64,000 nt of DNA from an uncultured Candidatus Saccharibacteria bacterium (GTDB lineage: Bacteria > Patescibacteriota > Minisyncoccia > Phycocordibacterales > UBA9973), in assembly GCA_964348725.1 (NCBI GenBank), contig CAYGDG010000004.1, positions 2,133-66,132 of the forward strand, read 5' to 3'. The translations under genes were made by a program, and so were the position numbers. Position 1 is the first letter of the stretch. Every line of letters begins with the position of its first letter. The notes beneath the pieces are model-generated. The model was not told where the DNA came from and searched no databases. It worked only from the letters and a program-made list of their open reading frames with translations. Positions 699 to 64,000 of the stretch are shown here, in pieces.

Positions 699-1984
699 AA
701 ATAATTTTCATAAAAACTCTGCTCGCTCTCGGCACCGCAGGAACATTTGTTTTCGCTTTCTTCGCATTTGCCGCGCCGCCCGCCTCGCCGTATATGCCGG
801 GCGAAGCGCTTGCTCCCGCCTGCGACCCGGGCACGCCGAACTGCACGGTGGAATCGCCGCTCCTCTCGGGCATCGCGCTCGGCGCGGACGGCAAAGTGCT
901 GAAAATTTCTTCGGGCGCTCCGGGCTGGGCGGATGATGAAGAGGGAACTTTTATTTTCTCCGCCGCAGATTACGAGCTGGATGATTTTGACGGTATCCTT
1001 TCCACGGACAAAGGCGGCACGGGGCTGGCGATTTTCTCCGCCGGTGATATTTTTTATGCGAGCAATAGTACGACCCTGTCGCTTTTGCCTGTCGGCACGA
1101 ACGGGCAGGTGCTGAAGATCTCCTCTGGTATTCCGAGCTGGCAGACGGATCTGACTATTTCCGGCGGCGGAGGCGAAGGGCCTTTTTCCGCCGGCGCGGG
1201 CATAGATGCGGCGAGCTTGTCCTCGGACATCATCGCCGTAGACCAGTCCGCGCTGAACCTGAATAATTTTGCCAATACGCTTTCCATAGCCAAAGGCGGT
1301 ACGGGCGCGGCGACGGCATCGGGCGCGCTGAATGCTTTAGGTATCGGCAATGTGGAAAACATTGCTTTGTCCTCGTGGACGGGAAGCGCGAATATCACCG
1401 CGCTCGGCACGATCGCTTCCGGCTCTGTTCCGTTTTCGCTCGTCTCCGGTACCGTTCCCGTATTACAAGGCGGCACGGGGCAGACGAGCTACACTGACGG
1501 CCAGCTTTTGATAGGAAACAGCACAGGCAATACGCTGACCAAGGCTACGCTCACTGCAGGGACGGGAATTTCCATCACCAATGGCGCGGGGTCTATCACA
1601 GTGGCAAATGCCGCCCCGGCAATCATCGCCGGCACATCCGACAATTCAAATACGGCGAATGGAAAATTTTATGCGCTCTCTGGAGATTCTTCTGGCAATG
1701 GCACGGATGCTTCCGCCGGCACGCGTACTCTCGTGCCGCGCGTGGGCACGATAAAAAATTTATATGTCATTCTTTCCGTCGCTCCCGGCGCGGGCAAGAC
1801 GAATACATATACAATTTACAAAAATGGCGTGGCCACATCGCTTGTCGCTGCCGTGTCAAACTCAGCGACCGCCGGCAATGACACCGCGCACACCGTGTCC
1901 GTGGCGGCGGGGGATGAAGTGTCCATCAATGTCGCCTCGCAGACCAATACCAAGCTCGGCTGGTCGGTGGAATTTACGAACTGA
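695..1984 (+). CDS. secreted repeat-rich surface protein (hypothetical)
   Basis: N-terminal signal/TM segment (LLALGTAGTFVFAFFAFAAP). Repeated KGGTG / ISSG(A/I)P(G/S)W motifs. Gly/Ser/Thr-rich and tail-fibre-like in composition. Start overlaps the previous stop (ATGA). Confidence 0.5.
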   Translation: MKIIFIKTLLALGTAGTFVFAFFAFAAPPASPYMPGEALAPACDPGTPNCTVESPLLSGIALGADGKVLKISSGAPGWADDEEGTFIFSAADYELDDFDGILSTDKGGTGLAIFSAGDIFYASNSTTLSLLPVGTNGQVLKISSGIPSWQTDLTISGGGGEGPFSAGAGIDAASLSSDIIAVDQSALNLNNFANTLSIAKGGTGAATASGALNALGIGNVENIALSSWTGSANITALGTIASGSVPFSLVSGTVPVLQGGTGQTSYTDGQLLIGNSTGNTLTKATLTAGTGISITNGAGSITVANAAPAIIAGTSDNSNTANGKFYALSGDSSGNGTDASAGTRTLVPRVGTIKNLYVILSVAPGAGKTNTYTIYKNGVATSLVAAVSNSATAGNDTAHTVSVAAGDEVSINVASQTNTKLGWSVEFTN

Positions 1985-1985
1985 T

Positions 1986-2723
1986 ATGGCAAGCATAGAC
2001 ACAATGCACGCATACGCCTGGAGCGAAAATGTCGGCTGGATACGCTTTGGCTCGGGCGTGGATGTGAGCGACAGTGCAGTCACTGGCTACGCGTGGATTC
2101 CAGAGCGTGGCTGGCTGCATCTGTCGCCCGCGCATTCGGGCGTGCATAATGACGGCGCGGGAAATCTCTCCGGGCAGGCGTGGGGCGAGCAAGTCGGCTG
2201 GGTGGATTTTGCCGGCGTCACGATAGATGCGGACGGATTCTTCCACGGCTATGCCGAAGGGGACATCACCGGGCAGGTGAATTTCAACTGCGAAAATACG
2301 GCGACTTGCGGCGCGTCGGATTTCAAAGTGCGCACCGAGTGGCGGCAGGCGAGCGCTCCCGTGCCAGTAGTTTCTTCCGGCGGCGGAGGCGTTGCCTCCG
2401 CCGCCGTCCCTACCATTCTGCCTGTGCCGGAAACATCACCAAGTATTCCTGCCGAAGTGCTGATTCTGCCCGTACCTGTAGCCACTCCCGCCCCGGCGGC
2501 AGAAATTCCGACAGCGCCCCGGCAAGTTTCCACCGCTTCCGTACCGATTGCCGTACCCGTGGCGCAGGCGGAAATTCCCTCAGTCATCTTTGACATCAGC
2601 GTCGCGCCCGGCATAGCCAAAGCGGGCAATCCGCTCATCCTTTCCGCCGCCGTATTGCTTGCTCTGTTTTCCGTCTGGCTCATCTTTTATTTTATTAATC
2701 ACAAGCGCGCGCCATATATATGA
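1986..2723 (+). CDS. membrane-anchored surface protein with three AW(S/G)E..GW(I/V).F repeats, a Pro-rich stalk and a C-terminal TM anchor (hypothetical)
   Basis: ATG at 1986, in frame with track ORF 1764..2723. Repeats YAWSENVGWIRF, YAWIPERGWLHL and QAWGEQVGWVDF. Pro/Ala/Val-rich linker. C-terminal hydrophobic helix followed by a basic tail. Confidence 0.5.
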   Translation: MASIDTMHAYAWSENVGWIRFGSGVDVSDSAVTGYAWIPERGWLHLSPAHSGVHNDGAGNLSGQAWGEQVGWVDFAGVTIDADGFFHGYAEGDITGQVNFNCENTATCGASDFKVRTEWRQASAPVPVVSSGGGGVASAAVPTILPVPETSPSIPAEVLILPVPVATPAPAAEIPTAPRQVSTASVPIAVPVAQAEIPSVIFDISVAPGIAKAGNPLILSAAVLLALFSVWLIFYFINHKRAPYI

Positions 2724-10827: not shown

Positions 10828-10837
10828 TTTCTGCATT

Positions 10838-10873
10838 CACCCTCTCCTTAATAAGGAGAGGGCAGGGTGAGGT
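10838..10873 (+). repeat. palindromic element copy A (CACCCTCTCCTTAATAAGGAGAGGGCAGGGTGAGGTG), intergenic, 10 nt upstream of the msrB ATG
   Basis: A 10-bp perfect inverted repeat (CCCTCTCCTT / AAGGAGAGGG) with a 3-nt loop, followed by CAGGGTGAGGT. Near-identical to copy B at 61264..61298. Confidence 0.8.
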
Positions 10874-17133: not shown

Positions 17134-17139
17134 TTATTT

Positions 17140-17171
17140 GTAACATTTTCTGCGATAGCAGAGATTGTTAC
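17140..17171 (+). promoter_or_regulatory. 32-nt palindrome copy 1 (GTAACATTTTCTGCGATAGCAGAGATTGTTAC): putative operator and/or terminator
   Basis: Outer inverted repeat GTAACA/TGTTAC plus inner CTGCGATAGCAG. Identical to copy 2. Followed by a T-run. Confidence 0.5.
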
Positions 17172-17296
17172 ATTTAGATATTTTTTATTACTTTTTTATC
17201 AAATATTTAAGAAGGTTTTTTATAATCCCTTCAAATCAGTTATGAGGTAGCCGAAAATCACAAAAAGAGTAGGCATACAAATTTAATATTTTAGCT

Positions 17297-17980
17297 ATGA
17301 AAAAAGTTTTGTTCTTTGTAATTATTTTGGCTATTGCTCCGCCTCTGTCTGCGCAAGTGCACATAGAGGCTCTGGATTTTCCGACAGCTATGACAGTGCC
17401 CGGAGAGAATCAGATGTTTGCTCGGTATCAGATCGCGTCCGATTCAAATTCGGCATATCTGTATATGGATACCTGCAATATGCTTTTCTACGATTTCGGG
17501 AATTTCTCGGGGATGTCCCTGCGGAATGTCAGGCTGTTCGTAGACGGCGAGGAAAGATTGATGCAGATGACGATGCCCGGTGATTTCTGGCAATTTTATC
17601 CGAGCATATTGCTCGGTTTTCCGTATGGCTTTGCGGACACGGCGCAGATTCATTTTCTGGCTGATCTGCCGGACACGCTCGGTGATGACTTCATCCCCTC
17701 CGTAGGCGATTCGCTGTATGCGAGTATCCATTGCAGCTGTCATTATGTTACAGGCACCGGCTCTTTTGCCACCAATGAAGCCATCAGCCAGACTGTCTTC
17801 GTGACGTCTTCCTCCGTCGGAATTGCGCAACCTTCGCCGCAAAATTTCTCCGAGCGCCAAAATGCTCGCTTCTTTGATATCTTAGGCAGAGAAATCAGCC
17901 GAAGCAATCTGGAAAATCTCCCGCCCGGCGTGTACATCTGGCGGAGTGACCGCTTGGCAGGGAAAATCCTCGTGCGGTAA
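17297..17980 (+). CDS. secreted protein with a T9SS (Por)-type C-terminal sorting-domain-like tail
   Basis: Signal peptide MKKVLFFVIILAIAPPLSAQ. The C-terminus FFDILGREISRSNLENLPPGVYIWRSDRLAGKILVR resembles the Por_Secre_tail consensus (..D..GR.V......LP.GVYI......GK..K.LV). Confidence 0.5.
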   Translation: MKKVLFFVIILAIAPPLSAQVHIEALDFPTAMTVPGENQMFARYQIASDSNSAYLYMDTCNMLFYDFGNFSGMSLRNVRLFVDGEERLMQMTMPGDFWQFYPSILLGFPYGFADTAQIHFLADLPDTLGDDFIPSVGDSLYASIHCSCHYVTGTGSFATNEAISQTVFVTSSSVGIAQPSPQNFSERQNARFFDILGREISRSNLENLPPGVYIWRSDRLAGKILVR

Positions 17981-18034
17981 AAATTACTCGCGAGAAAAGC
18001 CATCGGGAACGGTGGCTTTCTTTTTACCAAGAAT

Positions 18035-18066
18035 GTAACATTTTCTGCGATAGCAGAGATTGTTAC
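18035..18066 (+). promoter_or_regulatory. 32-nt palindrome copy 2, immediately upstream of a TATAAT and the PaaX-like gene
   Basis: Identical to copy 1. Followed by ATCTAATCACACCTATAATAATATG, so it overlaps the likely promoter of 18089..18571. Confidence 0.5.
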
Positions 18067-18088
18067 ATCTAATCACACCTATAATAAT

Positions 18089-34116: not shown

Positions 34117-35994
34117 TTATTCCGTTTTTACTTCCTCAAACTTCACTTTCTCCTCCTTTCCCTTGATGACTTTCTCCGGCTGGAAGGCGCGGGAGAGAGG
34201 GACGGTATGCATGGCGGCTGTCATGGAGCCGTCTTTTTTTATTTTTATTTCCAGGAGCGCGCCGCGCATGGTATTTACGGAAAAGTATTGATCAAAGATA
34301 AAATTACCGAGGCTGTATGCGATGTAGCCATTTTTATATATTTCCGTATCCTGCACCACGTGCGGATGCGCGCCGATGACGAGCTTGGCGCCCGCATCTA
34401 CTGCGCGGTGGGCGAGCGTTTCTTGCCGTTCATTGTGTTTCGTCTGATATTCATCGCCGAAGTGAAATGATACGACGAGGTGATCTACTTCCGCGGCGGC
34501 ATTTTTTATTATTTCATCAAAATTCGGATCGCTGGCGAGGAGGAGCCCGGCTTCAGTTTCTGTCGCTTTCATCCAGTCGGGACCCACATCAGAGAAAGCG
34601 ATATAGCCTATCTTGATACCATACTTTTCTATGATTGCCGGCTTTTTCGCTTCTTCGTAATTCATGCCGCCGCCGGCTGTGAGTATTTCATTTTCTTTCA
34701 GGCGAGCGAGGGTATCGGTGAAGGCATTTCTACCCCAGTCGCCGACATGATTATTTGCAAGCGACAGTACGGAAAAGCCCGCGCCTTTGAGAGCGGGAGG
34801 CACGGTAGGGTCCATACGGAAAGAATACAAGTTACGTTTGTCAGCGCCTTGATCCGATGCGGGACCTTCCAGATTCGCAAATGCGATGTCCGCTTTTTGC
34901 AATATCCCCAGATTTTCAAAAAGAGCGGTATAATCACCGCCAAAATTTTTCATGACAGAATTTTTGACACCCCGATCCAGCATGATGTCGCCGCCGAAGA
35001 CGAGCGTGAGGAAGTCCGGATCTTTTATTTCCGGCACGCCTTCTTTTTCTTTCACCCAGGCAGTGTCCGCGTCCGCTTCGCCGCCGTAGTATACATTTTT
35101 TTTCAGATATTTCACGAGGCTCATGACGTCCGCATATCTATCAGGGCTCCGCAGGAGGGCGATGGCGACAGTGCGGTTGCCCGTTTCGGAAAGCGGTAGT
35201 ATAAAGACGGATAGTACGGTTTGACGCGCAGGATCAGTGTAGCCGCTCTTGCCGCCCTGATATCCTTCTTCACGCAGGAATTGATTGTTTGATGACCAGA
35301 TATGGCGGTCGGTCTTATATGTTCGTTTAGAACTTATGGAAAAGAGCTCAGGTTTTTTTGTACTAATGAAACCGGCAAGGCGAAAGAGGTCAAGCGCACT
35401 GCCTTGATTCCCGGCGGAAAGCCCGCTCGGATCGGCAAATGATGCTGACAATGCGAGGCGCTCGGATTCCTGGTTCATTTTTGCGATAAAATTTTCACGT
35501 CCGAAATGTTCGGCAAGTATTTCCGCGGCATCGTTTGATGATTCCAGAAGCAGGGGATACAAGAGGTCGCCAGTCTGTATTTTTTCACCTTTCCGAAAGC
35601 CGCCGTTTTCGCCGTATGTGGCGAGCGCGCGAGGGGATACTATCGCCGTGTCATGTTCGCGCGGTAGCTCCGTAGATACGAGGGCAGTCATGAGCTTGGA
35701 CACGGACGCGAGCGGCATCACTTCTTTTTCATTCTTTTTTAAAATTATTTCTCCGGTATCCAAGTCGCCCACGATGTATGCTTCTGCGGCTACTTTTGGT
35801 TTGGCGCTGCCATCTTTGAGGAAATAAAAGAATTCCGGCTCTTGTGGTACAGGGGTCACGGTGACGGGCGCCGGCTCACCTGTTTTTATTTTCTGATAAT
35901 TCGCACTCGTAATAAAAAAGACGAGCGATACGCCTACACCGATGGAAAAAATGGTCCAGAAAAATGCCTTGATTTTTCCTGTGTGCGTCATCAT
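34117..35994 (-). CDS. fusion protein: N-terminal serine-type D-Ala-D-Ala carboxypeptidase (PBP5/DacA-like) domain plus C-terminal CapA/PgsA-type metallophosphatase domain
   Basis: N-terminal TM segment. SxxK LASVSKLMTALV. SxN SSNDAA. KTG-like KSGYT. The C-terminal half has VFGGDIMLDRGV ... FANLEGP ... LANNHVGDWG ... VVSFHFGDEY ... GAHPHVVQ ... YSLGNFIFDQ (CapA/YwtB-like). Confidence 0.65.
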   Translation of the reverse strand: MMTHTGKIKAFFWTIFSIGVGVSLVFFITSANYQKIKTGEPAPVTVTPVPQEPEFFYFLKDGSAKPKVAAEAYIVGDLDTGEIILKKNEKEVMPLASVSKLMTALVSTELPREHDTAIVSPRALATYGENGGFRKGEKIQTGDLLYPLLLESSNDAAEILAEHFGRENFIAKMNQESERLALSASFADPSGLSAGNQGSALDLFRLAGFISTKKPELFSISSKRTYKTDRHIWSSNNQFLREEGYQGGKSGYTDPARQTVLSVFILPLSETGNRTVAIALLRSPDRYADVMSLVKYLKKNVYYGGEADADTAWVKEKEGVPEIKDPDFLTLVFGGDIMLDRGVKNSVMKNFGGDYTALFENLGILQKADIAFANLEGPASDQGADKRNLYSFRMDPTVPPALKGAGFSVLSLANNHVGDWGRNAFTDTLARLKENEILTAGGGMNYEEAKKPAIIEKYGIKIGYIAFSDVGPDWMKATETEAGLLLASDPNFDEIIKNAAAEVDHLVVSFHFGDEYQTKHNERQETLAHRAVDAGAKLVIGAHPHVVQDTEIYKNGYIAYSLGNFIFDQYFSVNTMRGALLEIKIKKDGSMTAAMHTVPLSRAFQPEKVIKGKEEKVKFEEVKTE

Positions 35995-37952
35995 GCTAGT
36001 TCGTAATCAATTATTTTGCGCTCCAAATCTGCCTTTTTTACTTTTATTTTTACGCTGTCGCCCAGGCGATAGCGCTTTTTCTTTTTCTTGCCGACGAGCT
36101 CCAGTTTTTTCTCGTCAAAGATATAAAAATCGTCCGATATGTCGCGGGCGCGTACCATGCCTTCGCACTTTGTCTCAATTTCTTCCACGTATATGCCCCA
36201 CTCGGTGACGCCGGAGATGATGCCTTTAAATGTCTCCCCAATACGGTGCGACATGTATTCCGTCTGCTTGTATTTGATGGATGCGCGTTCAGCGTCAGAT
36301 GCGCGCTTTTCCTGGTCGGAACTTTTGCGGGACATCATCTCATACTCGCTCAATTTTTCTTTCGGCACTTTCTTGCCGGCAAGGTATTCCATAAGCAGGC
36401 GGTGCACCATCACGTCCGGATAGCGGCGGATAGGGGAAGTAAAGTGCGTGTAGTGCTCAAAAGCGAGGCCGTAGTGCCCGATATTTTTTGTGGAGTATAT
36501 CGCTTTTGCCATAGAGCGGATGACCGCGCGATGCACGGCGTCCTTTTCGGGCTTGCCGGCGAGCGAGGCGAGGAGTTTATTTATTTCAAATGGGGGAATG
36601 ACGCCGTTCAGTAATTTTACTTTGTATCCGAGGCCGTTTAGGAAGAGCGCAAGGTCGTGCATTTTTTCTTTTTCCGGCGCGTCATGAATGCGGTACACGA
36701 AGACGCCTTCGCCTTTCTTCATTCCTTTGCCAATGCGTTCGGCTACTTTACGATTCGCGAGGAGCATGAGCTCTTCTATCAATTTATTTGAATCTCCGCG
36801 CACTTTTTTTATGACTTTGAGCGGCACGCCTTTTTCATCCAGCACGAATTTTACTTCTTCCTGGTCCAAAGACACTGCGCCTTTCCGGAAGCGCTCAGCG
36901 GTGAGCTTTTTGGCGATGCCGTTTATGATGGCGAGTTCCGCGTGTAATTCACCATTCTTATCCGTGATAGATTTCTCCGCGTCTTCATAGCTGAAACGCT
37001 TTGCGGAGTGGATGACGGTGCGGCCGAACCATTCATCCAGTACCTGACCTTCTGTGTTCATGTGGAATACGGCGCTCATGGTCAGGCGGTCCTGGCCGGG
37101 CACGAGGGAGCAGAGATCATTTGAAAGTACTTCGGGGAGCATGGGTATCGTCCTGTCTACCAAATATACAGAAGTCGCCCGCTCGCGCGCTTCCTGATCC
37201 AGCTCGCTGCCGGGACGCACGTAATACGATACGTCTGCGATGTGGATGCCGATTTCGTACACCTCACCCCCTGACCCCCTCTCCTTAGTAAGGAGAGGGG
37301 GAAGAATGCGGAAAGAAATCGCGTCATCAAAATCTTTCGCATCTGCCGGGTCAATAGTGAAGGTGAGTATGTTTCTGAAATCGCGGCGGCCTTCGTAATC
37401 TTTTTCAGAAATGCCGAGCCGGCTGATGGCCTGCGCTTCATCTTCCGTACCTCTTGGCAGATCTGGCGCAAAGCCGCGCTCAATGGCGATGGCATTCATC
37501 TCGGCGGAATTTTCGCCCGGCTTGCCGAGCACGCGCATGACTTTTCCTTCAGGCGCTTTGCGCGCATCTTTCCACGACGCTATCTCTACGTACGCTTTTT
37601 CGCCGGCTTTGGCGCCGCCCAGGTTCGCCGGGGGGATCAAGATGTCCGTATACATCTTTGTATCATCTGGCTTCAAAAAAAACACGCCGTTCTCTTCTTC
37701 AATCACGCCGGAAAAACCACGCTTGGCGCGGGATATGATTTCCACCACTTCGCCCGTCTGCCGCACACCTTTCTTTTGCGGGAATAAGGCCACGAGCACG
37801 GTATCGCCGTGCAGGCCGGTGTGCAGATGCAGGGATTCTATTTCCACATCTTCTTCATCTTTCTTTTTTTTCGGTTCCAATGTGCGCAGGTAGCCTACGC
37901 CTTTACCGGAAACAGACAGTATGCCTTCAAGGCGGTTAGATTGTGTATCCAT
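35991..37952 (-). CDS. rnr: ribonuclease R (RNB-family 3'-5' exoribonuclease) carrying an in-frame palindromic-element insertion
   Basis: Cold-shock-like N-terminal domains. RNB motifs FTIDPADAKDFDDAISF and HFTSPIRRYPDVMVHRLL. C-terminal S1 domain and a K-rich tail. Confidence 0.85.
   Translation of the reverse strand: MDTQSNRLEGILSVSGKGVGYLRTLEPKKKKDEEDVEIESLHLHTGLHGDTVLVALFPQKKGVRQTGEVVEIISRAKRGFSGVIEEENGVFFLKPDDTKMYTDILIPPANLGGAKAGEKAYVEIASWKDARKAPEGKVMRVLGKPGENSAEMNAIAIERGFAPDLPRGTEDEAQAISRLGISEKDYEGRRDFRNILTFTIDPADAKDFDDAISFRILPPLLTKERGSGGEVYEIGIHIADVSYYVRPGSELDQEARERATSVYLVDRTIPMLPEVLSNDLCSLVPGQDRLTMSAVFHMNTEGQVLDEWFGRTVIHSAKRFSYEDAEKSITDKNGELHAELAIINGIAKKLTAERFRKGAVSLDQEEVKFVLDEKGVPLKVIKKVRGDSNKLIEELMLLANRKVAERIGKGMKKGEGVFVYRIHDAPEKEKMHDLALFLNGLGYKVKLLNGVIPPFEINKLLASLAGKPEKDAVHRAVIRSMAKAIYSTKNIGHYGLAFEHYTHFTSPIRRYPDVMVHRLLMEYLAGKKVPKEKLSEYEMMSRKSSDQEKRASDAERASIKYKQTEYMSHRIGETFKGIISGVTEWGIYVEEIETKCEGMVRARDISDDFYIFDEKKLELVGKKKKKRYRLGDSVKIKVKKADLERKIIDYELA
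37261..37300 (-). repeat. palindromic element copy C, in-frame inside rnr (encodes PPLLTKERGSGGEV)
   Basis: The sense strand reads CCCCCTCTCCTTACTAAGGAGAGGGGGTCAGGGGGTGAGG. Same family as copies A and B, with substitutions that remove in-frame stop codons. Confidence 0.7.
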
Positions 37953-48333: not shown

Positions 48334-48418
48334 GGATCCCGTTAGAGATAACAAATTACAAGCCTCATTAATAAGTAAATATAGTAAAAATTATTTATGA
48401 AAATCTCTAACGGGATGG
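48334..48418 (+). promoter_or_regulatory. long-range inverted repeat spanning the dnaG ribosome-binding region and start codon
   Basis: GGATCCCGTTAGAGAT (48334..48349) and ATCTCTAACGGGATGG (48403..48418). 14-bp perfect complementarity. The dnaG ATG is at 48397. Confidence 0.45.
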
Positions 48419-50172
48419 ACTCTCCCGTAGAAAAAATAAAGGAGAGGCTTTCCATCGAAGAAGTAGTCTCTTCCTACATAAAGCTTGAGAGGTCCGGGAT
48501 GAATTTCAAAGCCCGTTGCCCTTTTCACAATGAGAAGACCCCGTCTTTTTATGTGTCGCCGGACAGGGGAGGCTACTATTGCTTCGGCTGCTCCGCCAAG
48601 GGAGATATCTTCACCTTCGTGGAAGAATTCGAAGGGCTTGATTTCAAGGGTGCGCTGAAGCTCCTCGCCGAGCGCGCGGGCGTGCAGCTCGCTCGGTATA
48701 ATCCGAAAGAAGAAAGCGAAAAGGAAAAACTGTACCGCGTGATGGAAGAGGCGACTGCGTTCTTTGAGAAAAATTTGGAAACAAATGCAGAAGCGAAAAA
48801 ATACCTGAAAGACCGCGGCTTGGAAGAAAAGACTACAGCAGAATTTCGCATCGGTTTCGTGCCGGATGATTGGCGCTTACTGTATGCGCACCTGCAAAAA
48901 AAAGGATTTGCCGACAGTGAGATAGAAAAAGCTGGGCTCGCAAAAAAATCAGAGAAAAGCTTGCCCGCCTCTGGCTGGGGGATGTATGATAGATTCCGCT
49001 CACGCATCATGTTCCCAATTTCTGATTCTTCCGGCCGTGTCATCGCATTCTCTGGCAGGGTTTTCGGACCGGCGTCCGAAAACCCTGCCAATGCAAAATA
49101 CCTCAACAGCCCCGACACGCCCATCTTCTACAAATCCTCTGTACTGTACGGCCTCGACAAGGCCAAGGACTCCATCCGCAAGAATAATTTTTCCATCCTT
49201 GTGGAAGGACAGATGGATCTCGTGCTTTCGCATCAGGCGGGCTTCAAGAATACCGTCGCTACTTCCGGCACAGCGCTTTCGGAGTCCACTGTCTCTCGCG
49301 AAAATGCCGTGAACAACCTCGGCCTCATCCGCCGCCTCTCCGGCAATATCGTGCTGGCTTTCGATGCGGACAAAGCAGGACTTTCCGCCGCCGGACGCGC
49401 CGGCAAGATCGCCCTCGCGCTCGGTATGGATGTAAAGGCTGCTTCGCTGCCCGAAGGCATCGATCCGGCTGACCTCATCGTGAAAGAGGGCGCAGAAGCC
49501 TGGAAAGCCGCCGTGCGCAATTCAAAGCACATCATCGAGTTCTTGCTCGAGAAAGTCTTAAAAAACACGCCGGACGAGCGCAAGGCAGGCAGGGAAATCA
49601 AGGAGAAAATACTGCCATATGTGGCATCGCTCGACAGCGCCATCGAGCAGGCGCACTTCTTAAAGAAGATCAGCGATGCTTCCGGCATACCGGAGAGTGC
49701 ATTGCAGGAGGATTGGAAAAAGGTAGAGCAAGAGGTAAAATATACTAAGGAAGCGCCCGCCGAAACCTCGGACAAATACCGCGAAAGCAAGATGTTCCGC
49801 CGGGATTACATCGAGCGGCGCTTGCTCGGCATAGCTCTCTGGCAACAGAAACAGAAAGAGCCGAAAGTGGACGCGGAGAATATTTTAAACAAGCTCGGTG
49901 GTATTCTGGAAAAATACGCCGACTCTAAAGAAGACCTGATATTCGAAGCTGAAGTATTTTATGAAAACAACATACGCCTCGCTCGGGATGTGGCGGAAAT
50001 GCTGCAAAATCTCGAAGAGGAAGAGATAAATGAAGAGCTGGCGCGGAAGATGCGCGACCTGCATATCGCGGAAGAAAAGAAAGAGAAAGAGAAGTCCGCG
50101 GAAATTTTAAAAGAAATCAATGAGTTGAATAAGAAGAAGGAAGAAATTAAAAACAGTCGCTTTTCCGCCTGA
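48397..50172 (+). CDS. dnaG: DNA primase
   Basis: Zinc ribbon CPFHNEKTPSFYV ... CFGCSAKGD. RNA polymerase domain. TOPRIM ILVEGQMDLV ... LAFDADKAG. Confidence 0.9.
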   Translation: MKISNGMDSPVEKIKERLSIEEVVSSYIKLERSGMNFKARCPFHNEKTPSFYVSPDRGGYYCFGCSAKGDIFTFVEEFEGLDFKGALKLLAERAGVQLARYNPKEESEKEKLYRVMEEATAFFEKNLETNAEAKKYLKDRGLEEKTTAEFRIGFVPDDWRLLYAHLQKKGFADSEIEKAGLAKKSEKSLPASGWGMYDRFRSRIMFPISDSSGRVIAFSGRVFGPASENPANAKYLNSPDTPIFYKSSVLYGLDKAKDSIRKNNFSILVEGQMDLVLSHQAGFKNTVATSGTALSESTVSRENAVNNLGLIRRLSGNIVLAFDADKAGLSAAGRAGKIALALGMDVKAASLPEGIDPADLIVKEGAEAWKAAVRNSKHIIEFLLEKVLKNTPDERKAGREIKEKILPYVASLDSAIEQAHFLKKISDASGIPESALQEDWKKVEQEVKYTKEAPAETSDKYRESKMFRRDYIERRLLGIALWQQKQKEPKVDAENILNKLGGILEKYADSKEDLIFEAEVFYENNIRLARDVAEMLQNLEEEEINEELARKMRDLHIAEEKKEKEKSAEILKEINELNKKKEEIKNSRFSA

Positions 50173-51487: not shown

Positions 51488-51494
51488 CAGGCTT

Positions 51495-51590
51495 CCCCTC
51501 CTTGATTAAGGAGGGGATTGAGGGGTGGTAATTCAAAAAATCACCACCTCGGCCTTCGGCCACTCCTCCTCAATAAGGAGGAGAAATATG
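51495..51590 (+). repeat. cluster of three GC-rich hairpins after rpoD, two of them SD/anti-SD-like palindromes related to the repeat family
   Basis: CCCCTCCTTgatTAAGGAGGGG followed by ATTGAGGGGTGG. GGCCttcgGCC. CTCCTCCTcaatAAGGAGGAG followed 7 nt later by an ATG that opens a 13-codon ORF. Confidence 0.6.
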
Positions 51591-58053: not shown

Positions 58054-58168
58054 GGTATATTTTTTTTAAATAGTGATTTAAAATAATTTAATCACATATT
58101 ATTAAATAACACAACCCCTTTTGCTAAAAAGCCTTTTTTCCGCTACTATAGGCTATATGACCAAAGGC

Positions 58169-59437
58169 ATGCGACAATCCAAGCTTTTCACCAAGACCCG
58201 CAAAGAGGCTCCGGCAGAGGAGGTATCTAGAAATGCCGAGCTTTTGATACGCGGCGGCTACATTCATAAGGAGATGGCTGGCGTGTATGCTTATCTGCCA
58301 TTGGGTATTCGCGTAATAGAAAAGATAAAAAATATAATTCGTGAAGAAATGGATGCTGTGGGCGGGCAAGAACTTTATATGACTACTCTTCAGCCGAAAG
58401 ATATTTGGGAAAAGACTGATCGCTGGGATGATGCAAAAGTCGATAACTGGTTCAAGACAAAATTAAAGAATGGCGAAGAACTCGGAGTTGGTCTGACTCA
58501 CGAAGAACCTATAGTGGATGCGATAAGCAATTATGTTTCTTCATATCGCGATTTGCCTTTTTCCGTCTACCAGATCCAGAATAAGTTTCGCAATGAATTG
58601 CGCGCAAAAAGCGGCTTATTGCGCGGCAGGGAATTCATTATGAAAGATATGTATTCTTTTGCCAGAACGGAAGAAGAACACACGGAGCTGTACGAAAAAA
58701 TCGCTGCTGCGTATCATAGGGTGTATACAAGGCTCGGTATCGGGCATATCACATATCGCACATATGCCGACGGCGGCATTTTCACCAAGAAGTTCAGCGA
58801 TGAATTCCAGGTACTTTCCAGTGTAGGTGAAGACACTATATATTTGGATGAAGAAAAGAATATCGCCATCAATAAAGAAATATACACAGATGAGAATTTG
58901 GAAAAATTAGGTCTTGATAAGGCAAAATTGGTGGAAAAGAGAGCGATAGAAGTGGGTAATATCTTTCCGCTTGAAAGCAAGTATACCGATGCTCTGGATG
59001 TTTATTTTACGGATGAAAATGGAGAAAAAAAATCCATAATCTCAGGCTGCTACGGAATAGGTGTGAGCCGCACGATGGGCGTGCTTGCTGAAATACTTTC
59101 TGACGACAAGGGCATCATCTGGCCGGAAGCTGTCGCGCCTTTTAGGGTGCACTTGCTTGCCCTCGGCGAAGATGAGGCGGTGCAGAAAGAAGCAGAAAAG
59201 GTTTTCAATGATTTGGAAAATGCTGGGATAGAAGTGCTTTTTGATGACCGCACGGACATGTCGGCAGGGGCAAAGTTTGCCGATGCGGACTTGCTCGGCA
59301 TGCCATATCGCGCAGTCATTTCCGCGAGAAGCATGAAAGAAGGCGGTGTGGAATTGAAGAAGCGGAATGAAGAGAAAGGCAGAGTTATCAGCACAGATGA
59401 ATTAGTTAGGGCTTTAGACCCTAACGAGAGGGTCTAA
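58169..59437 (+). CDS. proS: proline--tRNA ligase (short form without editing insertion)
   Basis: MRQSKLFTKTRKEAPAEEVSRNAELLIRGGYI ... AGVYAYLPLGIRV. Class II motifs. C-terminal anticodon-binding domain. Alternative upstream ATGs at 58121 and 58157. Confidence 0.8.
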   Translation: MRQSKLFTKTRKEAPAEEVSRNAELLIRGGYIHKEMAGVYAYLPLGIRVIEKIKNIIREEMDAVGGQELYMTTLQPKDIWEKTDRWDDAKVDNWFKTKLKNGEELGVGLTHEEPIVDAISNYVSSYRDLPFSVYQIQNKFRNELRAKSGLLRGREFIMKDMYSFARTEEEHTELYEKIAAAYHRVYTRLGIGHITYRTYADGGIFTKKFSDEFQVLSSVGEDTIYLDEEKNIAINKEIYTDENLEKLGLDKAKLVEKRAIEVGNIFPLESKYTDALDVYFTDENGEKKSIISGCYGIGVSRTMGVLAEILSDDKGIIWPEAVAPFRVHLLALGEDEAVQKEAEKVFNDLENAGIEVLFDDRTDMSAGAKFADADLLGMPYRAVISARSMKEGGVELKKRNEEKGRVISTDELVRALDPNERV

Positions 59438-59451
59438 AGCCCTAACTACAT

Positions 59452-60498: not shown

Positions 60499-61276
60499 AA
60501 AGAATCGGCAGAAAAAATATCGCACCATTGCGATAGGCGTTTTCATTTTGCTCGTCGCCATATATTTCCGTGCGGAAATTTACAATGGCTTTTCGCGTGT
60601 TCTCGGCGCGGTGGCAAAACCATTTCTCTCGTTCGGCCGAAATGTGGGCGGCGGCATTTCCGGCACTGGCGCGGCTTTTGCTTCCAAAAAATCTTTGCGT
60701 GCGGAAAATGAAAATCTAGAGGCACAGCTCGCCGAAATGCAGGGCAGGATGGGGAACTATGATATTCTGGCCGCCGAAAATGAAAACTTGAAAGAAATAT
60801 TGGCGAGAAAAAAAACTCCCGGCACATTGCTCCTCGCCGCCATCCTCGCACATCCGAACCGCTCTTTATACGATACTGTACTTATAGACGCGGGCGAAGC
60901 TGAAGGGGTGAAAGCAGGCGACAGGGTATTCGCGGAAGGCGATATACCGCTCGGCACAGTGGCGGAAGTCATGCCGCACTCGGCAAAAGTGCTCTTGTAT
61001 TCAAATCCCGGCGAGAAGACCGAAGCCATCCTCGGCGAAGGGCATGTCACCCTCACCGGCCGCGGCAGGGGAAATTTTGAGATGATTCTGCCGCGTGATT
61101 ATGTATTGGAGCCAGGCACTGCCGCGCATCTGCCCGGTATATATCCGTATGTCATTGCCCGCACGGCCACGGTCATTTCCGACCCGCGGGATTCGTTTCA
61201 GAAAGCGTTACTGATCAGCCCGGTGAATATTAATCACCTCAAATTTGTGGAGGTGGAGGTTTCACCCTCTCCTTAA
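60479..61276 (+). CDS. mreC: rod shape-determining protein MreC
   Basis: N-terminal TM segment. Coiled coil ENENLEAQLAEMQ ... ENENLKEIL. Beta-rich C-terminal domain. The last 6 codons and the TAA stop lie inside palindromic element copy B. Overlaps mreB. Confidence 0.8.
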   Translation: MSYLLDKKNRQKKYRTIAIGVFILLVAIYFRAEIYNGFSRVLGAVAKPFLSFGRNVGGGISGTGAAFASKKSLRAENENLEAQLAEMQGRMGNYDILAAENENLKEILARKKTPGTLLLAAILAHPNRSLYDTVLIDAGEAEGVKAGDRVFAEGDIPLGTVAEVMPHSAKVLLYSNPGEKTEAILGEGHVTLTGRGRGNFEMILPRDYVLEPGTAAHLPGIYPYVIARTATVISDPRDSFQKALLISPVNINHLKFVEVEVSPSP

Positions 61277-61298
61277 TAAGGAGAGGGCAGGGTGAGGT
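61264..61298 (+). repeat. palindromic element copy B (CACCCTCTCCTTAATAAGGAGAGGGCAGGGTGAGGT), between mreC and tgt
   Basis: Identical over about 35 nt to copy A. It supplies the mreC stop codon and a GGTGAGGT motif 5 nt upstream of the tgt ATG. Confidence 0.8.
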
Positions 61299-61302
61299 TC
61301 TT

Positions 61303-62568
61303 ATGAAATTTGAAATTATAAAAAAACTAAATAATTTGCTCGGTCGCGCGGGAATTTTAGAAACTCCGCACGGGGTTATCCGCACGCCGGCATTCGTGGC
61401 CGTCGGTACGAAAGCGACGGTGAAATCCCTCACGCCCGAGCACGTCAAAAGCGCCGGCTGCCAAGTGGTGCTCGGCAATACCTATCATTTATATTTACAG
61501 CCCGGCGATGAGATAGTGCGCAAAGCCGGCGGCATCGGGAAATTTATGAATTGGCAAGGACCGACGATGACGGATTCCGGCGGCTTCCAGGTATTTTCGC
61601 TGGGCGCGGCATACGGCAAAGATATTTCTAAAGTAATAAAAATCACCGACCCGTCGCTCCTAATACCAGAGCGTTTTGATGACAGCGATGCTCCGCGCCT
61701 CGCGAAGATCGGCGCAGACGGCGTGTCCTTCAAATCGCACTTGGACGGAAGCATTCACTACATCACGCCGGAAAAATCCATCCAGATCCAGCACAATCTC
61801 GGCGCGGATATTATTTTCGCTTTTGACGAATGCACTTCGCCGGCGGAAGATGTGCGCTATCAGGAAGAAGCATTGGAACGCACGCACCGCTGGGCGGAGC
61901 GATGTTTACGGGAGCACATCAAACTTAATACCACCCCCTTACCCCCTCCTAATTTAGGAGGGGGAAGCTCCGACCTAGGTCGGAGCGGGGGAGGTATCGC
62001 ATTGTTTGGAATTGTGCAAGGCGGCAGGGAAGAAAATTTACGCAAAAAATCCGCCAAGATAATTTCGGAGATGCAAGTGGATGGAAAAGGATTTGATGGC
62101 TTCGGCATCGGCGGCTCTTTCGCGAAGGAAGATATGAGTACTGCCGTAAAATGGGTGAATGAAATTTTGCCGGAAGAAAAGCCGCGGCACTTGCTCGGCA
62201 TCGGCGAGCCGGAAGATTTTTTTATGGGCATAGAAAACGGCGTGGATCTTTTTGACTGCGTCATCCCGACGCGCCTCGGCCGAAACGGCACGATATATAC
62301 GAAAAGAGGGAAGATAGTGATCACGAATGCGCAGTACAGAGAAGATTTTACGCCGATAGAGGATGACTGCCCGTGCACGACCTGCCAAGGCTACACCAAA
62401 GCCTACATCGCGCACCTTTTCCGCGGCAAAGAAATGCTCGCCGGCACGCTCGCCTCCACGCATAATATGTATTTCATCGTCTCCCTCGTAGACAAAATCC
62501 GGCAATCTATTTTGGATGGAAATTTTTATGAATTTAAGGAAAGCTTTATGAGGGAATATATAAAATAA
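61303..62568 (+). CDS. tgt: queuine tRNA-ribosyltransferase carrying an in-frame palindromic insertion
   Basis: TPAFVAVGTKA, QGPTMTDSGGFQVFSLG, LGIGEPED ... DLFDCVIPTR, and the zinc site CPCTTCQGYTKAYIAHL. Confidence 0.9.
   Translation: MKFEIIKKLNNLLGRAGILETPHGVIRTPAFVAVGTKATVKSLTPEHVKSAGCQVVLGNTYHLYLQPGDEIVRKAGGIGKFMNWQGPTMTDSGGFQVFSLGAAYGKDISKVIKITDPSLLIPERFDDSDAPRLAKIGADGVSFKSHLDGSIHYITPEKSIQIQHNLGADIIFAFDECTSPAEDVRYQEEALERTHRWAERCLREHIKLNTTPLPPPNLGGGSSDLGRSGGGIALFGIVQGGREENLRKKSAKIISEMQVDGKGFDGFGIGGSFAKEDMSTAVKWVNEILPEEKPRHLLGIGEPEDFFMGIENGVDLFDCVIPTRLGRNGTIYTKRGKIVITNAQYREDFTPIEDDCPCTTCQGYTKAYIAHLFRGKEMLAGTLASTHNMYFIVSLVDKIRQSILDGNFYEFKESFMREYIK
61931..61993 (+). repeat. composite palindromic element inserted in-frame in tgt (encodes TTPLPPPNLGGGSSDLGRSGGGI)
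   Basis: CCCCCTCCTaatttAGGAGGGGG followed by CTCCGACCTAGGTCGGAG. About 20 extra residues relative to the canonical Tgt loop between RWA..R and ALFGI(I/V)QGG. Confidence 0.65.
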
Positions 62569-63081: not shown

Positions 63082-64000
63082 ATGGGGTTTAAACTCAAAA
63101 CTGAATTTCAGCCTGCGGGCGACCAGCCGAAGGCTATAGAGGGGCTGGTGAGCGGGCTCAAAAAGGGTATGCGGAAGCAGACATTGCTGGGTGTGACGGG
63201 TTCGGGCAAGACTTTTACGATGGCGAATGTCATACAGCAGATGCAAAAGCCGACGCTGGTGATAGCGCATAACAAGACCCTGGCCGCCCAGCTGGCGCAG
63301 GAGTTCAAGGAATTTTTTCCGGAAAATGCCGTGCATTATTTTGTTTCTTATTACGATTATTACCAGCCGGAAGCGTACTTGCCGACGACGGACACATACA
63401 TAGAAAAAGACGCGCAAATAAATAAAGAGATTGATCGGCTTCGTCATGCGAGTACGCAGGCACTTTTGTCCAGAAAAGATGTGATAATAGTTGCCTCAGT
63501 GTCCTGCATTTACGGCTTGGGAAGTCCGGAAGAATATAAGGAAGAAAATATGTCCCTCGCCGTGGGCGATGCCGCCGGGCGCTCGGAGATAATGAAGCGC
63601 CTTATCGGTATGCATTTCTCGCGCACGAATGCGGACCTGACGCCGGGAACTTTCCGCGCGATGGGGCAAAAGGTAGAACTGATGCCGATTTCGGAGACTT
63701 TTACATATAGTATTGAATTTTCCCCCTCTCCTTTACAAGGAGAGGGCGGGGGTGAGGTTCTTCGCATTTTAAAAATAGACGCCGTGTCATCCAAAGTCCT
63801 CGGTGAAGAGCAGAATATTTTTATTTTTCCGGCGAAGCACTTCATCACGAACAAAGCGAAGCTTCAGCAGGCGATAAAAAATATCAAAGAAGAACTGAAA
63901 GCCCAGCTGAAGAAATTTGATAAGGAAGGAAAAATTTTGGAAGCCGAGCGGCTGAAGCGCCGCACGAATTATGATCTGGCGATGCTGCGCGAAGTGGGCT
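63082..64000 (+). CDS. uvrB: excinuclease ABC subunit B (5' part; continues beyond window)
   Basis: MGFKLKTEFQPAGDQPKAIEGLVSGL ... QTLLGVTGSGKTFTMANVI ... YFVSYYDYYQPEAY ... ASVSCIYGLGSPEEY. Confidence 0.9.
   Translation, partial: MGFKLKTEFQPAGDQPKAIEGLVSGLKKGMRKQTLLGVTGSGKTFTMANVIQQMQKPTLVIAHNKTLAAQLAQEFKEFFPENAVHYFVSYYDYYQPEAYLPTTDTYIEKDAQINKEIDRLRHASTQALLSRKDVIIVASVSCIYGLGSPEEYKEENMSLAVGDAAGRSEIMKRLIGMHFSRTNADLTPGTFRAMGQKVELMPISETFTYSIEFSPSPLQGEGGGEVLRILKIDAVSSKVLGEEQNIFIFPAKHFITNKAKLQQAIKNIKEELKAQLKKFDKEGKILEAERLKRRTNYDLAMLREVG
63722..63758 (+). repeat. palindromic element copy D in-frame inside uvrB (encodes SPSPLQGEGGGEV)
   Basis: CCCCCTCTCCTTTACAAGGAGAGGGCGGGGGTGAGGT. Same family. 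The stop-creating positions are altered (TTTACAA loop, GGCGGGGG). Confidence 0.7.

Follow-up and report, generated by a model that had tools for sequence, protein, structure and literature searches.

In this study, we characterized a composite palindrome within the coding sequence of tgt, the gene for queuine/preQ1 tRNA-ribosyltransferase (Tgt), in a 64,000-nucleotide stretch of contig CAYGDG010000004.1 from an uncultured Candidatus Saccharibacteria bacterium (the whole stretch is hereafter referred to as the window). This element, located at positions 61928-61997, belongs to a dispersed family whose members are short repeats with nested hairpins, similar to repetitive extragenic palindromic (REP) sequences and Rickettsia palindromic elements (RPEs). 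It is probable that the family represents selfish or neutral DNA, and that the element is tolerated in a permissive loop of Tgt, in which it lies in frame. The original prediction, made from the letters of the sequence, had claimed that palindromic DNA lies in frame within tgt, and this was borne out: the element fills codons 210-231 (61930-61995) of an intact open reading frame (ORF). The gene and the parts of the element are:

61303..62568, + strand: tgt (queuine/preQ1 tRNA-ribosyltransferase) ORF, 421 aa, intact (Pfam, PDB match and translation)
61928..61997 (70 nt), + strand: whole composite palindrome, a three-way junction (fold)
61928..61938, + strand: 5' arm of the outer stem, ATACCaCCCCC, which, on the minus strand, provides a reverse-oriented unit with its G-rich tail GGGGGTGGT (fold; minus-strand pattern match 61930-61963)
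61942..61964: hairpin 1, CCCCCTCCTAA t TTAGGAGGGGG, with 11-bp arms, polypyrimidine arm first; identical in the nearest relative (L001)
61967..61986: hairpin 2, GCTCCGACCT|AGGTCGGAGC, with 10-bp arms, placed where the unit has its optional second hairpin; sequence unique
61987..61997, + strand: 3' arm of the outer stem, GGGGGaGGTAT, corresponding in the forward unit to the G-rich tail GGGGGAGGT(AT) (fold, pattern match)

The ORF matched Tgt over the full-length domain (Pfam PF01702, E = 3.6e-134, 447.8 bits), its closest PDB matches were the Tgt structures of Zymomonas mobilis (E ~1e-97), and it is 73-86% identical to annotated Tgt proteins of Patescibacteria. The zinc motif CxCxxC...H and the motifs 'TDSGGFQ' and 'DECT' are intact in the translation and, given that both catalytic and zinc motifs are preserved, the enzyme carrying the insert is therefore probably active. 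The DNA at the insert reads ...AAT ACC ACC CCC TTA CCC CCT CCT AAT TTA GGA GGG GGA AGC TCC GAC CTA GGT CGG AGC GGG GGA GGT ATC GCA...; the codons filled by the element give the peptide TTPLPPPNLGGGSSDLGRSGGG, and translation across the insert junction gives, for example, LNTTPLPPPNLGGGSSDLGR.

Both of the perfect palindromes described in the original prediction are present (61942-61964 and 61967-61986), but they are not two independent elements, as the standard unit of the family consists of a hairpin, a small second hairpin and a G-rich tail. The earlier description had also overlooked an outer stem, in which 61928-61938 pairs with 61987-61997 with one A.A mismatch, and which encloses both hairpins and closes the three-way junction. 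Folding of an 84-nt segment containing the element gave a minimum free energy of -50.7 kcal/mol as RNA (z = -7.5) and -28 kcal/mol as DNA (z = -7.4), and none of 200 dinucleotide shuffles folded as well. After GC correction, no other 90-nt segment of the 64 kb is as structured (z = -5.3). The palindromy of the element is far beyond chance. It matches the unit pattern on both strands, that is, it corresponds to two units sharing hairpin 1 head-to-head, and this is why their tails pair as the outer stem.

In the unit, a polypyrimidine arm is followed, after a short loop, by its polypurine complement; next come either 1-5 nt or a small second hairpin, and then the tail, which is G-rich (GGGTGAGGT or GGGG(T/A)GGT). 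When the window was searched with a degenerate hairpin pattern, ten matches were obtained over the two strands, corresponding to five palindromic sites, compared with 0 in shuffles. The copies outside the coding sequence of tgt are:

61261..61298, + strand: intergenic copy (TTCACCCTCTCCTTAaTAAGGAGAGGGCAGGGTGAGGT, sister subfamily), located 4 nt upstream of the tgt ATG
10836..10873, + strand: copy located 9 nt upstream of the ATG of msrB (SelR), with 38/38 identity to 61261-61298
37261..37303, - strand: in-frame copy in RNase R, peptide ILPPLLTKERGSGGEV, +10 aa compared with Bacillus subtilis RNase R
63720..63762, + strand: in-frame copy in UvrB (ORF 63082->64000), peptide FSPSPLQGEGGGEVL, +8 aa compared with B. 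caldotenax
51494..51583, + strand: intergenic composite downstream of a sigma-70 gene, two units tail-to-tail (CCCCTCCTT..AAGGAGGGG, GGGGTGGT..ACCACCTC, GGCCttcGGCC, CTCCTCCT..AGGAGGAG)

The two copies upstream of msrB and tgt are identical at 38 of 38 positions within unrelated flanks, and their GGTGAGGT tails occupy the Shine-Dalgarno (SD) position, at a distance of 9 nt from the msrB start and 4 nt from the tgt start. The original prediction had regarded tgt as a second coding target of one kind of element; the in-frame copies in RNase R and UvrB agree with this view, with different arm sequences (CCCCCTCC vs CCCTCTCC). The RNase R copy (ORF 35991-37952, minus strand) lies within the beta-hairpin after the DDA motif of the RNB domain. 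The UvrB insert is absent from 49 of 52 related UvrB genes, and different inserts are present at the same codon boundary in L057 and L012.

The same sequences recur in different genes and genomes. The composite at 51494-51583 was also found in frame in UvrB and in a 2156-aa ORF of other genomes, and peptides matching it (PLLVEEGVGGG...HHLALKG) occupy the tgt site in four Tgt homologues (P0020, P0063, P0096 and P0113). Cores of other families located at the tgt site recur as well, mostly in frame: UvrB carries them after 'IIRPTGL.DP', a ~450-aa ORF has them at two sites, and they are also present in large ORFs of L049, L054 and L044; in L049, cores in different genes of one genome are 90-98% identical. 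Among the perfect polypyrimidine/polypurine hairpins detected in 1.42 Mb of related sequence, the pyrimidine arm comes first in 24 of 26 (24:2), and 18 of these 24 are within long open ORFs. The hairpin family is read in all three frames (PLLxKEG, PPPxxGG and SPSPxxGEG), and it is defined by DNA and not by peptide.

An alignment of Tgt orthologues, which had been suggested as a check, showed that the loop is not conserved and that the extra residues of orthologues are again encoded by palindromic DNA. Extra length was also seen in the window protein: it is ~18 residues longer than the closest insert-free orthologues (403-404 aa, 'KLNTENKIALFG'), and the HMMER alignment to Z. mobilis Tgt opened a 14-residue gap at the insert. 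In a set of 120 close homologues (73-85% identical and annotated as Patescibacteria, Paceibacteria or Nomurabacteria), Tgt length ranges from 399 to 462 aa, with the variation almost wholly at the insert site; ~25 of these proteins are insert-free ('...KLNTENK-IALFG' or similar), and the remainder contain 10-60 additional residues of several recurrent and mutually unrelated kinds.

For comparison at the DNA level, we collected 80 tgt loci of species-representative genomes and the contig of the closest relative (L001). About half of 82 related Paceibacteria tgt genes have 0-8 residues between the helix end and 'ALFGIVQGG', ~40 have 10-65 residues, and the frame is open through the insert site in all 82. 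Together with the location of most polypyrimidine-first hairpins in long open ORFs, this suggests that the elements are translated. Nearly all long inserts are strongly self-complementary (z = -4 to -11), usually in the form of an outer stem round two inner hairpins. They fall into roughly a dozen DNA clusters plus singletons, and the largest cluster is loosely linked and occurs in both orientations; examples of opposite orientation at the tgt site are L005 (forward) vs L010 and L020 (reverse), and also L003 vs L037. This cluster brings together peptide 'families' of no apparent relationship, since a single DNA sequence has been translated in different frames and in both orientations at the tgt site. 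In a neighbour-joining tree of Tgt with the insert masked, sisters differ in insert family or presence (L005 vs L013, L046 vs L047 and L043 vs L050), and a deeper Zambryskibacteria-like clade has no insert at the site.

Besides the main site, which has most of the events, Tgt also has minor insertion sites: 10 genomes carry an insert after residue 259 and 8 genomes after residues 361-363, and a further site is located at ~107-124. They include the 'QVDGKG' loop and the part of the zinc subdomain that follows CxCxxC, besides residues 107-124, and in some genomes they share repeat families with the main site (L020:11231-11317 and L044:10348-10370). Several insert-free sequences (L007, L011, L081 and P0026/P0054/P0114) have 'KLGG(D/E)Q ALFG' at the main site, encoded by AAA TTA GGA GGT GAG CAA. 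This resembles the 3' arm/tail of the unit (TTAGGAGG.. / GGTGAGG), and it could be either a deletion scar or a preferred GGNGG target.

The suggested structural model of the protein was built with AlphaFold2 from a 48-sequence alignment (predicted template modelling score, pTM, 0.82). The insert appears in it as a low-confidence coil (residues 211-232) in the loop between helix 184-210 and strand 233-238, and the predicted local distance difference test score (pLDDT) is <50 at residues 214-229. In (beta/alpha)8 barrels, alpha-to-beta loops are opposite the catalytic face, which is at the C-terminal strand ends; by analogy, the insert loop would lie on the face of the triosephosphate isomerase (TIM) barrel opposite the active site. 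The model suggests that the insert forms a 22-residue Pro/Gly-rich disordered loop that is tolerated by the fold. A protein-level function of the insert is unlikely because of its frame and orientation promiscuity together with disorder. We consider it highly improbable that the insert represents an adaptive protein loop, or an assembly error or pseudogene lesion. Being Pro/Gly-rich, it could in principle be a linker or interaction site, but one DNA family gives unrelated peptides in different frames and orientations, and the pLDDT of the coil is below 50 as mentioned above. Palindromes can confuse assemblers; however, inserts are present at the identical Tgt site in independent assemblies from many studies, which excludes an assembly artefact, and L001, derived from another sample than the window genome, has the same element. 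The intact ORF and catalytic motifs also argue against a pseudogene lesion.

Another segment of the window protein, residues 94-133 (61582-61701), has no counterpart in Z. mobilis Tgt, splits the Pfam and PDB matches and shows low pLDDT. Unlike the palindromic loop, it appears to be a conserved lineage-specific feature, since many of its residues are invariant across Paceibacteria (e.g. D116, P117 and PERFDD 122-127).

The basic unit is not restricted to this lineage. With the pattern CCCCTCCT-N(1-9)-AGGAGGGG-N(0-30)-GGGGNGGT, it was identified in at least 120 metagenome contigs with GC content from 0.28 to 0.71 (loci L082-L201). Among the matches listed, copies are mostly intergenic and often form inverted pairs, and 122 units have T, 32 have A and 3 have C as the variable tail base. 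Of the long spacers in these matches, 56 of 70 form perfect hairpins of at least 4 bp, compared with 17% in shuffles; such hairpins usually start with T and have GAA/GCA/GTA triloops. In plasmids, the pattern was matched in Azospirillum and Paraburkholderia only, all matches being unannotated; for example, the p2 megaplasmid of Azospirillum argentinense (L203, 1500-1640) has the same unit architecture between two cistrons of a resistance-nodulation-division (RND) efflux operon. No Rfam match was obtained at the gathering score for the window and 20 metagenome loci, and at permissive thresholds the insert gave only chance-level matches with E of at least 1.2.

The unit tail comes close to being a mirror repeat of the 3' arm, with the variable base (A or T) opposite an A-T pair, and this arrangement would fit a purine-motif triplex. 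We also considered the tail as a portable ribosome-binding site in general and rejected this idea: start codons are located at 4-13 nt from 12 of the 157 metagenome units listed (7.6%), compared with 54 of 738 random positions (7.3%). A more far-reaching proposal, which we regard as doubtful, is that the unit is an uncatalogued pan-bacterial element (pyrimidine/purine hairpin, GC-rich GNA-triloop hairpin and GGGG(T/A)GGT tail) with its own hairpin-directed installation, which would make the loops of Tgt, UvrB and RNase R hypervariable in Patescibacteria. Such an element may land beside GGNGG motifs, either Gly-Gly or SD-like, or it may become nested within hairpins already present.

In the reading that we prefer, the unit would be installed at the DNA level and then read through by ribosomes as a loop. 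Selection would remove copies that are out of frame, contain stops or fall in structured parts, and in-frame copies in permissive loops would survive. The helix-to-strand loop of Tgt would be the main permissive site and hence, in Paceibacteria, a fast-turnover sink for many unrelated palindromic families. The spread might occur via a trans-acting enzyme encoded elsewhere, or via hairpin/template-switch or patch-recombination events. We infer that the tgt element itself is neutral.

Several results weigh against this reading. First, L001 (the nearest relative, 78% nucleotide identity over tgt) has this element at the corresponding position, and its hairpin 1 and two tails do not differ from those of the window, which points to possible constraint rather than neutrality. 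Second, no second copy of hairpin 2 was found in the window at up to 3 mismatches, in any fetched locus (~2.1 Mb) or in viral contigs. Third, the elements resemble the replacement of a few native codons and not a clean insertion; in uvrB, the element-like span is 43 nt with a net gain of only 24 nt, and its tail is located where orthologues have the Gly-Gly codons GGT GGA G. Fourth, no target-site duplication is visible at the elements. At tgt no direct repeat flanks the element, and the closest empty site is only ~81% identical in protein, a divergence that makes the boundaries of the element imprecise. Fifth, a tblastn search with an IS200 TnpA sequence, a weak test for a transposase, gave nothing below E = 0.86 in 2.1 Mb, representing part of each genome. 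Finally, inverted copies were considered as transposon ends and discarded: in L126, the enclosed genes encode a histidine kinase, a sigma-54 regulator, PrcB and a pseudouridine synthase, and no transposase.

With respect to hairpin 2, the original prediction had suggested a search for other copies of the CTCCGACCTAGGTCGGAG module, and none was found in the window, the fetched loci or the viral collection. Within these sequences the module is not a repeat, and the likeness of the 'SSDL' peptide to P0075 is coincidental at the DNA level. In L001, GCCgaaGGC occupies the second-hairpin position in place of the 20-nt palindrome of the window, and the second hairpin of this relative, tGCCGAAGGC, was found exactly in contig L167. 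Another family member, at L009:10089-10142, is in frame in a different gene with the second hairpin GGCTgcaAGCC. Hairpin 2 may have arisen locally by a template-switch-like process, or it may be a variant form of the second hairpin that the unit optionally carries. In addition, the intergenic copy preceding tgt is missing from L001, in which mreC and tgt are directly adjacent.

The codon-replacement appearance of the gains (24 vs 43 nt in uvrB) leaves room for a hairpin- or microhomology-driven process, and a palindrome in dnaG points in the same direction. This palindrome (49053-49090; dnaG ORF 48397-50172, plus strand) is a perfect 17+4+17 structure, TGGCAGGGTTTTCGGACcggcGTCCGAAAACCCTGCCA, in frame; its left arm consists of the conserved GRVFG codons, and its right arm is an inverted copy of these adjacent codons that takes the place of the native linker, for a gain of just 4 aa. 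In appearance, it is closer to a product of template switching than to a copy of the repeat family. One may ask whether the tgt element also originated in situ, by local hairpin-templated or template-switch errors or patch gene conversion, with copies being alike via convergence on G-rich/Gly-Gly or SD-like seeds and concerted evolution. Besides the DnaG palindrome, this would be consistent with the uniqueness of hairpin 2, the coincidence of the uvrB tail with native Gly-Gly codons, the lack of a detected transposase or target-site duplication, and the finding that outer stems of other families differ among copies with a common core. However, it would have to explain two copies that are fully identical over 38 nt at unrelated loci, highly similar cores in different genes of one genome (L049) and the presence of one composite in different genes of different genomes. 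Independent origin of such long identical sequences is unlikely, and we consider the in-situ explanation unlikely as a whole.

The identity of hairpin 1 and both tails in L001, in a gene that is otherwise 78% identical, also raises the question of a functional nucleic-acid structure, in which the three-way junction would be selected in tgt mRNA or DNA as a translational pause between barrel halves, an RNase/stability determinant, or a protein- or ribosome-binding site via SD/anti-SD-like arms. The second hairpin changes its sequence yet remains a hairpin, the majority of long metagenome spacers listed (56/70 vs 17% in shuffles) form perfect hairpins, mostly with GAA/GCA/GTA triloops, the polypyrimidine arm is preferentially first (24:2), and the unit occurs over a wide range of GC content and in Azospirillum, well beyond the phylum. 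All of these would be in line with selection on structure. On the other hand, the insert is missing in about half of the orthologues and replaced in others by families that are unrelated to it and occur in either orientation, Rfam gave no match, the tail is not enriched at SD distance (12/157 vs 54/738), and intragenic copies are in unrelated genes with no common theme beyond loops. Such a function is quite improbable in our opinion, and a dispersed, selfish or neutral repeat family is preferred.

Among known systems, the closest to the repeat family described here are the RPEs (RPE-1 to RPE-10), repeated palindromes that are in frame in housekeeping genes and translated (Ogata et al. 2000/2002, summarised in PMC10969869 and PMC3733652). 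Both have in-frame and intergenic copies, surface positions compatible with the fold, no known transposase, a reduced host genome and uvrB as a target. The features of RPE-like elements found here include several hairpin-forming copies per genome, in-frame location with an open ORF, absence from orthologues and loop position. On the other hand, the hosts differ (Rickettsia vs Patescibacteria), and so does the length (~100-150 bp for RPE-1 vs a unit of 40-70 nt here); sequence homology to RPE families is unlikely because host phylum and unit length differ. Compared with RPEs, polypyrimidine/polypurine SD-like arms, the G-rich tail, one loop with many families, both orientations and rapid turnover between sisters set the present case apart.

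Intragenic REPs of the GTAG/CGTC superfamilies are in frame in genes including uvrB, and their dimers encode 20-30 aa (Di Nocera et al. 2013; PMC3733652). REP dimers, REP doublets forming hairpins (REPINs) and bacterial interspersed mosaic elements (BIMEs) contain hairpin units of 20-40 bp, often as inverted pairs forming larger hairpins (PMC3733652; Bertels & Rainey 2011, PMC3116915). Inverted pairing is shared with the present family (head-to-head in tgt, tail-to-tail at 51494-51583 and in many metagenome pairs), and REPs are mostly intergenic and sometimes located in repair or replication genes. However, GTAG, CTAC, CGTC and GACG were not found in the four window copies examined, and the tgt element is not a GTAG/CGTC REP because this tag is absent. 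The family also differs from REPs in its homopyrimidine/homopurine arms, and no REP-associated tyrosine transposase (RAYT) was found in the tblastn search of 2.1 Mb mentioned above, a weak test.

[quoted passage not shown] The likeness consists of small non-autonomous repeats with inverted ends and possible in-frame fusions, and the outer stem could be read as terminal inverted repeats. The differences are that neither a target-site duplication nor a related insertion sequence was seen here, and that the whole element is a hairpin instead of terminal inverted repeats round a non-palindromic core. In quasipalindrome or template-switch mutagenesis, replication errors create or perfect palindromes in genes without a mobile-element enzyme. 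This process fits the DnaG palindrome and possibly hairpin 2, but not identical multi-copy units at unrelated loci. In the literature searched, nothing was found that links Patescibacteria, Parcubacteria or the candidate phyla radiation (CPR) with MITEs, REPs, REPINs or in-frame palindromes, and a literature search by arm sequences gave nothing relevant.

In-frame palindromic repeats in essential-type genes were first presented as a peculiarity of Rickettsia and later reported sporadically elsewhere; here, they are seemingly pervasive in another lineage with reduced genomes. Three housekeeping genes are affected within 64 kb, and one Tgt loop has received roughly a dozen palindromic families unrelated at the DNA level, with turnover between sister taxa. 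The in-frame palindrome phenomenon itself has precedent; of most interest here are the hot-spot turnover at the Tgt loop and the uncatalogued cross-phylum unit. This system offers a natural experiment in which selfish DNA creates protein loop variation, and the filled and empty alleles could reveal the insertion mechanism. Among CPR proteins, such inserts also cause hidden Markov model matches to be split, reduce model confidence and lead to an overestimate of 'novel' sequence. The basic unit, which is present across phyla yet in no RNA family library, merits its own study.

Further palindromes were noticed in the window. A perfect 20+6+20 palindrome, TAGTTAGGGCTTTAGACCCTaacgagAGGGTCTAAAGCCCTAACTA, at 59403-59448 overlaps the last codons and the stop of a class-II aminoacyl-tRNA synthetase gene (58121-59437), before mreB, and belongs to a different sequence family. 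The hairpin TGTAACATTTTCTGCgataGCAGAGATTGTTACA is present at 17138-17173 and 18033-18068, on either side of the ORF 17297-17980, and a DUF805b RNA motif (Rfam RF02914, 41.4 bits) is located at 17241-17275, between the first of these hairpins and the ORF. Two GC-rich, strongly self-complementary segments (2051-2140 and 2378-2406), one of which is a perfect 13+3+13 palindrome, CGGCGGCGGAGGCgttGCCTCCGCCGCCG, were observed in the ORF 1764-2723 (plus strand, no Pfam match) and may represent further in-frame palindromes.

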